A DNA stretch of 46,994 nucleotides from Mycobacterium sp. (GTDB lineage Bacteria > Actinomycetota > Actinomycetes > Mycobacteriales > Mycobacteriaceae): the NCBI GenBank assembly GCA_003165155.1, contig PLSK01000251.1, forward strand, positions 1 to 46,994, read 5' to 3'. Under the pieces are notes generated by a model, which saw only the letters and a program-made list of their open reading frames with translations, was not told the DNA's origin and did not search any database. This document shows positions 9,500-21,537 of the stretch, in pieces (position 1 is the first letter of the stretch; each line of letters begins with the position of its first letter). A program made the position numbers and the translations under genes.

Positions 9500-12740
<3,241 letters not shown>

Positions 12741-12807
12741 CCCGCGTCGAGTGTGCGTCCAGGGCGGAAAATTCGCCGAGATCCCACCCTCAGTGCACGC
12801 TCAAAGC
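12741..12807 (+). repeat. REP-like imperfect hairpin, copy 1 (CGTC-tagged)
   Basis: cccgCGTCgagtgtgcgtccagggcgg...caccctcagtgcacgctcaaagc: arms gagtgtgc..agggcg and caccct..gcacgctc pair. Its reverse complement aligns without gaps to 13738-13804. Confidence 0.8.
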
Positions 12808-12809
12808 CT

Positions 12810-13664
12810 TTACCGCACACTAGAAGCCGCGATCGCCGCCTCCACCCGACGCAGAACGCGAGCCGGGCTATCCTCTGCCACAACCCGGACGATGATCCAG
12901 CCCATCTCTTCGAGCATCTCCAGCCGGCGTATGTCTTTGACGTACTGGTGCCGATCGGTCCGATGATGGTCCCCGTCATATTCCACCCCGACCATCCAGT
13001 CCTGCCAGCCCAAGTCGAGGTAGGCGACCGGAATGCCGTCGACACCGAGCACCGGTATCTGAGTCTGCGGCCGCGGGAATCCGGCATCGATGATAAGTAG
13101 CCGCAGGTAACTCTCCCGCGGCGACTGCGCACCCGGGTCGACCAGGTCCAGCGCAGTCTCCAATGCTCGCAGCCCCGGCGAGCGCGGATGCGCCTGCGCA
13201 ACACTGAGCACGTCGTCGACCTTGAAGCCGGTTGCGCGTGCGAGGGCATCCAGCCGCGCGACCGCTGAATGGACAGCACCGCGCCGGCCGATATCGAAAG
13301 CAGTCCGCTCGGGCGTTGTCACGGCACACCCTGCCAAAACCTGAGCCTCGCCGTCAGCCAACGCATCTCGCCGAATCACCACGCCGTGGGGCGAACGGGT
13401 GCTGCCGCAGATCAACTCGACCGGAACATTTTCAGGAATCCACTTGGCGCCGTGTAACGCCGCGGCGGCGGCACCTGCGATGGTCGCCCCGCGGTTGCAC
13501 CAGAGCCAGGCTGCCGCGATGCGCAGCTCAAGCGAGGGCTGGAGGTCTTTTCCGACGTAGACGTTCGGAAACACCGCGCGGTAACGCGTCCGCAACTGAT
13601 GCCGGCTCAACGCGCCACACGCCAACGCCTCGCTGCCGATGAATGGTTCCCCCGCACACTCCAT
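12810..13664 (-). CDS. DUF559/AbiEi-like putative endonuclease (Rv3714c/Rv1073-type family)
   Basis: PFIGSEAL start, TTPERTAFD, AQSPRESYLR, PQTQIPV, AYLDLGW, GVEYDGDHH..D..QYVKD..R...GW..VRV (Vsr/PD-(D/E)xK-like C-terminus). Confidence 0.85.
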   Translation of the reverse strand: MECAGEPFIGSEALACGALSRHQLRTRYRAVFPNVYVGKDLQPSLELRIAAAWLWCNRGATIAGAAAAALHGAKWIPENVPVELICGSTRSPHGVVIRRDALADGEAQVLAGCAVTTPERTAFDIGRRGAVHSAVARLDALARATGFKVDDVLSVAQAHPRSPGLRALETALDLVDPGAQSPRESYLRLLIIDAGFPRPQTQIPVLGVDGIPVAYLDLGWQDWMVGVEYDGDHHRTDRHQYVKDIRRLEMLEEMGWIIVRVVAEDSPARVLRRVEAAIAASSVR

Positions 13665-13714
13665 CTTGCGAACAATCCCACGGAGGCGAGGACTCTGATT
13701 ACGGCTATCCACAA

Positions 13715-13731
13715 CCCGCGTCGAGTGTGCG
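13715..13731 (+). repeat. 17-bp exact direct repeat of the left arm of REP-like copy 1
   Basis: cccgcgtcgagtgtgcg at both 12741-12757 and 13715-13731. Confidence 0.85.
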
Positions 13732-13737
13732 CTGGCG

Positions 13738-13804
13738 GCTTCGAAAGTGCACTGAGGGCGGCGTATAGGCGATTTTCTCACCCTGCAAACACACTCGAGG
13801 CGCC
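13738..13804 (-). repeat. REP-like imperfect hairpin, copy 2 (inverted relative to copy 1)
   Basis: gcttcgaaagtgcactgagggcggcgtataggcgattttctcaccctgcaaacacactcgaggcgcc versus reverse complement of copy 1 gctttgagcgtgcactgagggtgggatctcggcgaattttccgccctggacgcacactcgacgcggg. Confidence 0.8.
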
Positions 13805-13875
13805 TGTGGGCTGGGGCTCAAGAAGATCGCAAGCCGATTCAGCCAATTTTCAGCTACCGGCCGCACAGTTATCGC

Positions 13876-15180
13876 ATGGCGGGGCAGTCCACACAGTGGG
13901 TCGCCACGGCCCGCGTGCTACGGCGGGCCGGGTTTGGGGTGACCGGGCCCGAGGTGGATGCTGCGGTTACCCGCCCCTGGCCGGCATACGTCGACGCAAT
14001 GCTGGCCGCGGATCCCGATGCCGACCCGGGTGCCGCCGCTGCCCCGATGCCGTCGCTGGCCGAACCTCGTCCCGTTGGCAAAAGGGCAACACAAGGGGCC
14101 CGCAAGCAATACAACCAGCAGCTGTCCGAACAGCAAGGCGTGCTGTCGGATTGGTGGCTGCGCCGCATGACAACCGTTGACCAGCCGATCCACGAGAAGT
14201 TGACTCTGTTGTGGCACAACCACTTTGCCACCTCGGCAGAGAAGGTTCGCAGCGCGGCGCACATGGCGGCGCAGAATCAGAAGCTGCGCACCCTCGCACT
14301 GGGCGATTTCGGCAACCTGGCCTACACAATGCTGACCGACGCCGCAATGTTGCGCTGGCTGGACGGGCAGAGCAATACCGCCAAGGCCCCCAATGAAAAC
14401 CTCGCGCGCGAATTCATGGAGCTGTTCGCACTGGGCCACGGAAACGGGTACACCGAGGAAGACGTCCGCGACGGTGCCCGGGCGCTAACGGGATGGGTCA
14501 TCGGCGCCGACGGCCGAACCTCGATGATCCCCAAACGCCACGACGGCAGTGCCAAAACGCTGTTCGGCCTCACCCGCAATTTCGACGCGGCCGAATTCTG
14601 CGACACCGTGCTGGCGCAGCCTAAGTCGGCGGAATACGTCGCCGGACGCCTGTGGCAGCAACTGGCCTCCGACGATCCGCCCTCACCTCAGGCGTTAGGC
14701 CGGATCGTCTCGGCCTACGGAACCGGTCGCGATCTGCGGGCGCTGACCCAGGCGATCCTTACCGACGAAGAGTTCACCGGAGGCCGGGCCACCGTGGTCA
14801 ACACCCCAATCGAATGGCTAGTCGGCGTAATCCGGGCCCTGCGGGTGCCCGCCCAGCCCAAGATGGTCCACGCGACGCTGCGAACGCTGGGGCAGCGACC
14901 GTTCTACCCACCCAGCGTCGGCGGCTGGCCAAGCGGGCAGGTCTGGCTGTCCACCGCCAGCGCCGGGGCGCGGCTGCACGCAGCGATCCAGTTGGCGCAC
15001 GCCGGGGACCTGTCCAGCATCGAGAGCGTCGCAGCCGGAGATCGCATCGATGCGGTCGGATATCTGATCGGCGTCGGAGCGTGGTCGGACCGCACGGTCG
15101 AGGCGCTGGAGCCCCTGCTGCACCAACCGCCGCAGTTGGTCGCAGCCGCGGTCAACACGCCCGAATACCTGACGTCCTAG
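13876..15180 (+). CDS. DUF1800-family protein
   Basis: LRRAGFG, EKLTLLWHNHFATS, MLRWLD, PNENLAREFMELFALG, PPSVGGW motifs. Confidence 0.9.
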   Translation: MAGQSTQWVATARVLRRAGFGVTGPEVDAAVTRPWPAYVDAMLAADPDADPGAAAAPMPSLAEPRPVGKRATQGARKQYNQQLSEQQGVLSDWWLRRMTTVDQPIHEKLTLLWHNHFATSAEKVRSAAHMAAQNQKLRTLALGDFGNLAYTMLTDAAMLRWLDGQSNTAKAPNENLAREFMELFALGHGNGYTEEDVRDGARALTGWVIGADGRTSMIPKRHDGSAKTLFGLTRNFDAAEFCDTVLAQPKSAEYVAGRLWQQLASDDPPSPQALGRIVSAYGTGRDLRALTQAILTDEEFTGGRATVVNTPIEWLVGVIRALRVPAQPKMVHATLRTLGQRPFYPPSVGGWPSGQVWLSTASAGARLHAAIQLAHAGDLSSIESVAAGDRIDAVGYLIGVGAWSDRTVEALEPLLHQPPQLVAAAVNTPEYLTS

Positions 15181-15191
15181 CGAGACTGACC

Positions 15192-16382
15192 ATGCCGGAG
15201 ATCAATCGCCGCAAATTCCTCATCGCCAGCGCGGGCGCGGGCGCGGCCGGCCTGCTGTCCGGGGCGGTGGCGATCAGCTGGCCGGACCTGATGCGCGCGG
15301 CGCAGGACCGGCCGCTGCCCGCCAATGCCGGCGTCCTGGTGATCGTCTCCCTGTACGGCGGCAACGACGGCATCAACACTCTGATCCCATACGCCGACAA
15401 CGCATATCACGATGACCGGCCTGAACTCGCCTACGCGCCGGGTGATGTCCTACACCTCGATCAGCACCTGGGTCTCAACCCCGCGATGCGGGGTCTGGCT
15501 CAACTGTGGAGCCAGCGGCAGCTGGCGGTCGTGCGCGGCGTGAGCTACCCGCAACCCGACCACAGCCACTTCCGGTCCATGGATATCTGGCAGACGGCGT
15601 CCCCGTCCGAGCCGGTCCCGACGGGCTGGATCGGCCGCTGGCTCGACGCCGGCGGCGACGACCCGTTGCGCGCGGTCAACATCGGAGCGGTCCTGCCCCC
15701 GCTGGCGGTCGGTGCGAAATACACCGCGGCAGCGCTTTCCACCGGCGCCCGGCCGGCCAATGCGGAAAAGTTCGGCTCCATCATGAGTGCGCTGGGTAAC
15801 GATGATCCAAGCGACACCGTGGCGATGGCCGCGGTTTGCAAGGCCTACCGCGCCGCACGCACCACCGATGCGACCTTCGCGTCCGTCAAACCGGATACCG
15901 AGAAACATAATTCGCTCTCCACCCAACTGAGCGTGGTGGCCAACGCGGTCAAGGCTCGTGTCCCGACGCGGGTGTACACAGTGCAACTCGGCGGGTTCGA
16001 CACACACGCCAACGAGCGCGAAACCCAGCAGCGGCTGCTGCAGACATTCGACACGGCCGTCAGCGGATTCCTGCAGGATATGGCGGGTGACCCTTACGGC
16101 AAGAACGTGGTCCTGCTGGCATATTCGGAGTTCGGCCGAAGAGTGCGCGCGAATGCTTCCCAGGGCACCGATCACGGCACCGCCGGTCCCGTTTTCGTCG
16201 CGGGCGCACCAGTGCAGGGCGGGTTCTACGGTGAGGAGCCCAGCCTCACCGACCTCCACAACGGAGACCTCAAGTTCAGCACCGACTTTCGCGACATCTA
16301 CTACGAGCTGCTGTTGCGGACCGTCGGGACTGATCCCACACCGTCGGTCGGCACCGGACGCACCAGCCTGGGCTTCTTATAG
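15192..16382 (+). CDS. DUF1501-family protein with Tat signal peptide
   Basis: INRRKFL twin-arginine signal; [41 protein letters not shown] motifs; 11 bp downstream of DUF1800. Confidence 0.9.
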
Positions 16383-20778: not shown

Positions 20779-21537
20779 ATGACGCACCCGTCGTCGGAGA
20801 CGCCGACTCTTGTTCAGGTAACCGACACCGTCTACCTGGCCCAGGGCCACGCCGTGAACTGGGCGCTGGTTACCGGCGAGACCGGCGTCATGCTGATCGA
20901 TGCCGGTTATCCAGGTGACCGCGTGGACGTGCTGGCCTCGTTGCGCAAGCTGGGTTATGACGCCCGCGACGTGCGCGCCATCCTGCTGACACACGCGCAC
21001 ATCGACCACCTGGGTTCGGCGATCTGGTTCGCCAACGAGTACGGGACCCCGGTGTACTGCCATGCCGACGAGGTGGGGCACGCGAAGCGGGAGTACCTGG
21101 AGCAAGCCTCGGTTTTCGATGTCGCGCTCCGGATCTGGAAACCTCGATGGGCGGTGTGGGGCATGCACCTGGTCCGCAACGGCGGCTTGATCCGCGACGG
21201 CATCCCGAGCACCCAGCCGCTGACCGCCGAGACGGCGGCCGGACTGCCGGGTCATCCGATGGCCATCGCCACTCCGGGGCATACCAGCGGCCATTGTTCT
21301 TATGTCGTCGACGGCGTGCTGGCCAGCGGCGACGCGCTGATCACCGGCCATCCGCTGCTGCGTCGCAGCGGACCGCAGCTGCTGCCTGCGGTGTTCAGCC
21401 ACAGCCAGCAGAACAGTATGCGCAGCCTGAGCGCGCTGGCCCTGCTGGACACCCAGATTCTGCTGCCCGGTCACGGCGATGTGTGGCGCGGCCCGATCCG
21501 CGAGGCCACCGAAACGGCCATATCGCTGGCCCAGTAA
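20779..21537 (+). CDS. Metallo-beta-lactamase-fold hydrolase (Rv0406c-like)
   Basis: THAHIDH, PGHTSGH, GDALIT, PGHG motifs. Confidence 0.92.
   Translation: MTHPSSETPTLVQVTDTVYLAQGHAVNWALVTGETGVMLIDAGYPGDRVDVLASLRKLGYDARDVRAILLTHAHIDHLGSAIWFANEYGTPVYCHADEVGHAKREYLEQASVFDVALRIWKPRWAVWGMHLVRNGGLIRDGIPSTQPLTAETAAGLPGHPMAIATPGHTSGHCSYVVDGVLASGDALITGHPLLRRSGPQLLPAVFSHSQQNSMRSLSALALLDTQILLPGHGDVWRGPIREATETAISLAQ

Follow-up and report, generated by a model that had tools for sequence, protein, structure and literature searches.

A Vsr-like nuclease gene bracketed by palindromes beside pknG in Mycobacterium: a possible REP/RAYT-like partnership with an unrelated enzyme

The nuclease cassette beside pknG

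The stretch of DNA analysed here (the window) comprises the 46,994 nucleotides (nt) of contig PLSK01000251.1, positions 1 to 46,994, from the Mycobacterium sp. assembly GCA_003165155.1, a metagenome-assembled genome of 5.26 Mb in 341 contigs that is about 90% complete and is called G000 below; other genomes are numbered G, contigs C and loci L. A gene for a predicted nuclease of 284 amino acids (aa; 12810-13664, reverse strand) lies in it between pknG (10428-12740, forward strand; Pfam PknG_TPR, PknG_rubred and Pkinase) and a gene assigned to DUF1800 by Pfam (13876-15180, forward strand), and is bracketed by two palindromic units that form a cassette with it. The TGA stop codon of pknG (12738-12740) abuts unit A, which spans 12743-12827 (its start can be read as 12741 or 12743) and was found by an inverted-repeat search, by nhmmer (E 1.6e-15) and with a covariance model (73 bits). 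Its 62-nt core (12746-12807) ends 2 nt short of the nuclease stop codon (12810-12812), and the unit overlaps this stop and the last five codons of the gene. Unit B (13718-13802, core 13738-13798; nhmmer E 2.5e-13) is an inverted, diverged copy of unit A, and the repeat search of the window aligned the two as 85-nt inverted arms, 74% complementary and 890 nt apart. An earlier reading of this DNA, made from the letters alone (the sequence-only reading), had placed a hairpin of about 67 bp between the pknG stop and a point 2 bp from the nuclease stop, with an inverted, diverged copy upstream of the nuclease start. The position and the inverted copy stand, while the length becomes 85 nt. The tetranucleotide difference that it reported 5' of the stems (GCGTCGAG versus GCCTCGAG in the inverted copy) is present as well and was given no weight.

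In each unit, a core hairpin stands between an outer arm and a second arm complementary to it, which gives the order a...a' [gene] a...a'. The outer, first arm of unit A (12740-12757) can pair through 12744-12757 with an inner arm at the 3' end of the gene (12814-12827), which also encodes the protein tail ..SSVR. An exact 18-nt direct copy of the outer arm lies at 13714-13731 (100% identity, spacing 974) and pairs with 13790-13802 (13 nt, 92%). Between unit B and the start codon, the sense strand of the gene carries a conserved motif, TTGTGGATAGCC (13703-13714, reverse strand), which is kept in the orthologs at the pknG locus. Short 5' motifs of this kind were also seen in other family members, inside the segment that can invert (window 13640-13714): many of them have TGTCGGTG about 20 nt before the start, and the pknG-locus orthologs have TGTGGATAG some 50 nt ahead of it. 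These motifs may be promoters or operators. The start codon was read as the ATG at 13662-13664, and not as a GTG at 13781 inside the repeat, because orthologs begin there.

The encoded protein combines an AbiEi-like N-terminal part with a C-terminal part resembling Vsr/EDxHD nucleases, as judged from Pfam, structure prediction, Foldseek and conservation. Its C-terminal Pfam matches fall below the cut-offs (REase_MTES_1575, PF18741, 32.0 versus 38.2 bits; DUF559, PF04480, 16.0 versus 20.6), and close homologs, including named Mycobacterium proteins, carry both PF09407 (AbiEi_1) and PF18741 (MTES_1575). The AlphaFold (AF2) model had a pLDDT of 95.7. Foldseek aligned it with the AbiEi-type protein Rv2827c (PDB 1zel; probability 1.0 over 216 columns) and with the catalytic domain of I-Bth0305I (PDB 3r3p; probability 0.99, TM 0.57-0.68 normalised to the target). 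Residues D217, E228, D230, H234 and D244 are present, with E228-x-D230-x3-H234 at the matching motif, and are predicted to be of catalytic type; these positions are kept in 72-83% of a 46-sequence alignment, in which several residues of the AbiEi-like part are invariant. No Pfam match on the protein was found to the HUH Y1 transposase domain (PF01797) or to any other transposase domain, which bears out the earlier assignment to PD-(D/E)xK-type nucleases rather than HUH transposases. No gene for an AbiEii toxin partner adjoins it, the neighbours being pknG and DUF1800. This is a large family, with 11,307 cluster representatives at E<=1e-3, and each of the 61 Mycobacterium genomes sampled has 1-19 matches.

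Comparison with G004, the closest relative, revealed that the cassette has inverted. Window positions 12741-13761 aligned to G004 on the opposite strand, with both flanks collinear, and in-silico reversal of 12814-13731, that is the gene with its 5' region, made the window collinear with G004. The breakpoints coincide with the inner arm at the 3' end of the gene on the left and with the arm at 13714-13731 on the right. In the other orientation, the latter pairs with 12740-12757 at 18 of 18 positions as the outer stem of unit A. The inversion thus explains the third arm of the sequence-only reading: its identity to the first arm and its pairing with 13790-13802 hold, its length is 18 instead of 17 nt, and it is no additional site but unit A's outer arm, parted from its partner. 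Likewise, no target-site duplication was seen, as had been stated, and the inversion accounts for the 18-nt direct repeat instead. The corresponding arms of G004 pair over 13 nt, and both carry GTGCA where both arms of G000 have GTGCG; this shared variant suggests a recent exchange between arms.

The same flip was found in the clade of G018 and G061, giving two independent events at the pknG locus. When 92 loci were grouped by their outer flanks, 15 orthologous groups were obtained, and at two further loci the gene was inverted relative to both conserved flanks (L086 and L111 versus five others; L064 versus L098). Flips were therefore seen at three loci, in at least four events with both flanks conserved and in two more cases on one flank alone, with breakpoints within the palindrome intervals of about 100 nt. 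As a control, the 278 kb aligned between G004 and G000 showed no other local inversion.

Such recurrent inversions with breakpoints in the arms could be the trace of a programmed, phase-variable switch, in which the arms would be recombination sites and a flip would alter expression or the C-terminal tail of the protein. The covariation of the outer arms between G000 and G004 (GTGCG or GTGCA in both) is in line with such a switch, and so is a row, left without comment, in a published table of predicted programmed-inversion targets, in which DUF559 domain-containing proteins are 14-fold enriched (Milman et al. 2023, PMC9881135). The cassettes described here resemble those targets in the DUF559 domain, in an arm overlapping the last codons, in the inverted repeats and in the occurrence of both orientations among species; they differ in that population-level flipping was not seen, since the assembled contigs of four peat and permafrost metagenome samples, which hide rare variants, held only the window orientation and no joints. 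Moreover, the 5' region moves with the gene, so a flip should not switch it off, and no recombinase gene lies immediately beside the cassette (pknG and DUF1800 adjoin it). We therefore give a programmed switch little credence. Conversely, repeated inversion of these cassettes offers an explanation of why DUF559 genes stood out in the inversion survey (PMC9881135).

The cassette has a long history at this locus. In 14 genomes the nuclease gene has pknG on one side and ackA (or DUF1800) on the other; G013 has a frameshifted copy and G021 a remnant. A single weak match in the unpublished genome G031 was left out of account. The empty pknG-ackA sites that the sequence-only reading had proposed to look for in relatives exist, 44-60 nt long, in G005, G016 and G020. 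Ratios of non-synonymous to synonymous divergence (dN/dS) between the pknG-locus orthologs were 0.13-0.22 at dS 0.7-1.7, near the value for the pknG C-terminus, and ortholog identity ranks roughly follow those of pknG. Both results argue for an old gene, vertically inherited and under purifying selection, and the insertion suspected earlier is not a recent one: the gene has been kept between pknG and ackA since before the species split. The later insertion is that of the DUF1800 and DUF1501 genes, which in a subclade came to lie between the cassette and ackA; ackA is directly beside the cassette in G058, G062, G018 and G061. Across the genus, the pknG-ackA gap (window 12741-16382; loci L007-L020) is empty or holds the nuclease cassette, the DUF1800-DUF1501 pair or other, unrelated open reading frames, and G009 has a solo hairpin of a different type after its pknG stop.

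Palindrome types, their genes and their solo copies

When folded alone, the two copies in the window did not exceed shuffled sequence in stability (DNA z -0.2 to -1.35). Thermodynamics cannot carry the claim, and the significance of these copies comes from their homology to a family of which they are eroded members. Iterated nhmmer searches of G000 returned about 24 loci for the window-type profile, in agreement with the earlier supposition that the hairpin is multi-copy, and 77 loci for all six gene-flanking types together. Across 25 copies, 88.5% of stem cells were paired and 56 cells had changed on both sides, compared to 22.7 in shuffles; none of 500 shuffles scored as high, and sliding the partner by 1-3 columns reduced pairing to 30-55%. 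A scan of the window region against Rfam gave nothing relevant, and matches of solo copies (palindromes standing without a gene) to miRNA families in Rfam were discarded as generic hairpin matches.

A de novo scan of G000 yielded 62 long palindromes, 27 of them of gene-flanking types, and five palindromes lay within 200 nt of the six genes described below, against about 0.09 expected from our own length-share estimate. A five-copy family of long palindromes with arms AGCAGACACAGAATCGCA, on contigs C198, C216, C238, C288 and C293, has no cognate nuclease gene in G000, and a hairpin related to it stands alone at the C136 locus of G023. Two AT-rich palindromes 1.8 kb apart in this GC-rich genome (C78:19041-19091 and 20908-20960) show no relation to the hairpin families; they could mark where a foreign element begins and ends.

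By tblastn, G000 contains six full-length paralogs of the nuclease gene, 42-57% identical, and one divergent, longer member. All six are flanked by two palindromes of about 60-65 nt that are matched within a gene and different between genes. When the 300-nt flanks were scored by local alignment, all six ranked within the top 8 of 2472 control genes, the other top-ranking controls being mostly in repeated-gene contexts; the preferential flanking of DUF559-like paralogs by matched variants, which the sequence-only reading had put forward, is thus borne out. In other genomes of the genus, 50 of 79 homolog loci scored above the 99th percentile of the controls and 29 scored at least 25. Gene-palindrome pairing is therefore common and not universal. 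Flanking pairs were direct at 34 of these loci and inverted at 15, which makes the inverted pair of the window the minority form. A survey of hairpins around the 79 homologs based on folding energy did not discriminate in a 65% GC background, and flank matching was used in its place. Among the six paralogs, protein identity and hairpin similarity showed a weak trend (rho 0.50, p 0.057, with non-independent pairs).

Several individual loci of G000 complete this picture. At C210:1757-3006, a gene of about 276 aa from outside the nuclease family is bracketed by window-type hairpins (1763-1823 and 2925-2985); the possibility that C210:2082-2909 is a hidden member of the family was rejected, and hairpin pairs are hence not exclusive to the family, although this was the single such case noticed among the 2472 controls. 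A 528-aa frame at C191:57554-59137 is family-like over its C-terminal 260 residues (E 1e-40) and carries an additional N-terminal half; no matched pair flanks it, and the palindrome found about 660 nt downstream is of another type. The nuclease core of the paralog L022 (C22:45266-46087) includes an N and is interrupted by an in-frame stop, but the gene has a near-perfect hairpin pair and solos of its type; it may be a pseudogene or an assembly error. Two intact Y1 transposase genes were considered as movers of the hairpins and set aside, neither being flanked by hairpins of the nuclease family, although they may act in trans.

With a profile built from each pair, the number of solos in G000 ranged from none for the C66 type through about 5 (C136), 6 (C222), about 10 (C22) and about 13 (window type) to about 30 (C159). 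Half of 70 placed loci lie between convergent genes, compared to 22% of all intergenic regions, and most are within about 30 nt of a stop codon. This placement, a few nt from stops as published for TRIT, the 'Tuberculosis Rho-independent terminator' motif (PMC3152330), would be expected if the association were passive: the palindromes would be general 3'-end elements acting at the RNA level, TRIT-like and perhaps RNase III substrates or insulators, while a gene of unrelated role, for example in defence or as an AbiE-like toxin-antitoxin component, would have entered and left their sites by host recombination, duplicating the resident hairpin, and the inversions would reflect host recombination between inverted arms. 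Sites with one solo where other species hold hairpin, gene and hairpin agree with this account, and so do the co-directional state, which puts both hairpins at gene 3' ends, and the sub-threshold matches of solos to the Rfam small RNA Ms_IGR-8. It leaves unexplained, however, why each paralog has its own type, why a repeat type is confined to genomes, non-sister ones among them, that have the cognate gene (see below), why hairpin pairs around other genes are limited to the single case noticed among the controls, and why unit B in the window stands between divergent genes, at no gene 3' end. We regard passive association as unlikely, though well worth weighing.

The sites themselves change state slowly. 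One solo carries a compensatory double change between species that keeps the palindrome. G042 cleanly lacks the C87 solo that G000 and G004 share, and the C177 solo is missing, just as cleanly, from both G042 and G008. The C103 site carries a C159-type solo in G000 (L165, C103:53670-53731) and a solo of another type in G004, while G003 and G042 have a full cassette of the G004-solo type, the two cassettes being oppositely oriented (L211, L214 and L215 compared). The C136 locus holds a cassette in six genomes including G000, one solo hairpin in G042, G014 and G023, and only a short unrelated hairpin in G008. A site can thus be empty, hold a solo or hold a cassette and pass from one of these states to another, and a solo of one type can give way to a solo of another. 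A further solo hairpin, L159 (G000:C294:6518-6592), sits at the junction of a 4-10-kb segment, which G010, G003, G008 and G014 carry and G000 and G004 lack.

The occupied-versus-solo polymorphism at C136 and C103, the patchy presence of the gene at its loci and the resemblance of the nuclease domain to the homing endonuclease I-Bth0305I might point to a selfish element that is still active, either a homing endonuclease or a cassette behaving like a transposon, which hops between hairpin sites and leaves solos as footprints. Such an element would be hard to reconcile with one gene per type and no near-identical copies, with orthologs held at one locus over deep divergence (dS up to 1.7) at the dN/dS and identity ranks given above, and with the lack of a target-site duplication, and we find it quite improbable.

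The link between a type and its gene was followed across genomes for the C159 type, with a model of this type, R2, searched against 41 genomes at E<=1e-5. Per-genome counts from another model, R1, were capped and mixed several types, and they were not taken as a test. Matches were found in seven (G000, G004, G010, G042, G043, G051 and G044; 13-51 each). A DNA search with the C159 locus found the cognate gene there in six of these seven, all but G044, and in none of the 34 repeat-free genomes; counted by gene, repeats occur in 6 of 6 gene-bearing and 1 of 35 gene-less genomes. Four gene-less genomes that group with G000 on a pknG tree (G008, G003, G014 and G023) gave 0-1 weak matches even at E<=0.01. 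On this tree, the four carriers that could be placed are not monophyletic, and three changes are required by well-supported branches; G042, for instance, is sister to G007, G008 and G003, which have neither the C159 gene nor its repeats. These results favour a real link between the C159 gene and its repeat. Across genomes, this one repeat type co-occurs with its cognate gene, G044 apart, and its solos show lineage-specific gains.

Weighing a partnership between nuclease and palindromes

Gene-palindrome pairing, type specificity, the co-occurrence of one type with its gene, the slow gain and replacement of solos and the repeated inversion between arms were all observed. We consider that they are best explained by a lasting, REP/RAYT-like partnership of each nuclease paralog with its own palindrome type, served by an unrelated enzyme, and we put the probability of this reading at roughly 0.55. 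Domain content and genomic association suggest that the nuclease may act on the palindromes. The protein would recognise its cognate palindromes, probably via the winged-helix part, and would nick or cut them as duplex, cruciform or hairpin. Cutting could keep the palindromes palindromic, and repair could copy them into other hairpin sites. As a by-product, recombination between arms would flip or delete the cassette, which would account both for the inversions and for the changes from cassette to solo.

The AbiEi-like part also lends itself to a narrower role, autoregulation alone, in which the upstream palindrome would be an operator for the winged helix, the downstream copy a terminator or looping operator, and the solos unrelated relatives from the same superfamily. 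The match to 1zel at probability 1.0 and the PF09407 matches of homologs would suit such a regulator, as would the position of the upstream hairpin some tens of nt before the start codon in paralogs and the conserved 5' motifs. The nuclease domain, the type-matched solos and the co-occurrence of solos and gene would then go unexplained, and orthologs in G008 and G003 have no upstream hairpin. We judge autoregulation alone improbable.

Several observations weigh against the proposed partnership. As to the genes, 29 of the 79 homologs have no clearly matched pair, about one fifth of the aligned family sample lacks the catalytic-type residues, the intact paralog C66 has no solos, and the apparently broken paralog C22 has about 10. 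As to the repeats, solos have diverged from the gene-flanking pair instead of being near-identical to it, and two small palindrome families have no cognate gene in the 90%-complete assembly. At the pknG locus, units A and B are closer to their own orthologs than to each other, and no ongoing homogenisation was seen there. G004 keeps most of the solos checked at the same sites as G000, from which we conclude that turnover and spread are slow. About 25 C159-type loci were counted in G044, whose best candidate for a cognate gene is not close (57% identity); all of these loci score at most 60 bits, compared to 71-87 in carriers. Finally, the co-occurrence test covers one repeat type and a single-gene (pknG) tree.

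In the literature on DUF559 with repeats, palindromes or inversions, and on RAYT/REPIN in Mycobacterium, we found no description of this layout.

Comparison with known systems

The cassette differs from insertion sequences (IS) and miniature inverted-repeat transposable elements in lacking a transposase domain and a target-site duplication. With I-Bth0305I (PDB 3r3p) and DUF559 proteins it shares the predicted fold of the C-terminal 90 or so residues and the acidic and histidine residues at the motif; unlike a homing endonuclease gene, it is not embedded in an intron, an intein or a host gene, and nothing indicates that it homed recently. With AbiEi antitoxins (Rv2827c, PDB 1zel) it shares the fold of the first 200 or so residues, and homologs match Pfam AbiEi_1, whereas a fused nuclease domain takes the place of an adjacent AbiEii nucleotidyltransferase. 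The palindromes have a partial counterpart in Rfam family RF02470, Ms_IGR-8, a small RNA of M. smegmatis whose consensus has its outer-arm motif and its inner-stem motif in common with the C136 and C22 types (GCCGCGAGUGUGAAG..CUGCGA..UCGCAG). Solos of two types score 21-35 bits against it (best 35.1), below the 44-bit cut-off, and the window copies do not match.

A further parallel, drawn from published descriptions, is with TRIT, which are likewise palindromic and bidirectional, occur in tens to more than a hundred copies near stop codons, often overlapping the coding end, and belong to Mycobacterium. To our knowledge, the literature records neither a protein partner nor a gene-flanking layout for them. 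In M. tuberculosis, 147 palindromic, bidirectional copies hug stop codons, and the family has been reported from Mycobacterium alone (Gardner et al. 2011, PMC3152330). Their function, debated since 2011, is unsettled: a terminator role is now doubted, and a link to RNase III has been proposed (PMC13714241). A nuclease family that is bracketed by type-matched palindromes and co-occurs with its type is a concrete candidate for such a partner. We tentatively raise the possibility that the family is the missing protein partner of TRIT-type palindromes, presumably including those of M. tuberculosis, in a REPtron-like arrangement with a Vsr-like nuclease. In that case the paralogs would keep their palindromes symmetrical, copy them into other hairpin sites by break repair and flip or delete their own cassettes, and would in this way shape gene ends and local genome rearrangement across the genus.

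The closest analogy in organisation is with the REP/RAYT systems (REPtrons) of Proteobacteria, in which repetitive extragenic palindromes (REP) accompany REP-associated tyrosine transposases (RAYT). In both cases a single-copy gene stands between copies of a palindromic repeat that belongs to it and is also dispersed in the genome, with one type per gene and vertical inheritance. REPtron repeats are found where their gene is, and the C159 type, G044 excepted, points the same way. The enzymes differ, an AbiEi-like protein with a Vsr/PD-(D/E)xK nuclease part standing where REPtrons have an HUH Y1 transposase of the IS200/IS605-like kind. The repeats differ too, being single, long, diverged palindromes, 0-30 per type, in contrast to abundant, near-identical REPIN doublets, and the flanking pairs are here more often direct than inverted (34 versus 15). 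The partnership proposed here would give the REP/RAYT principle a second example, with a different chemistry.

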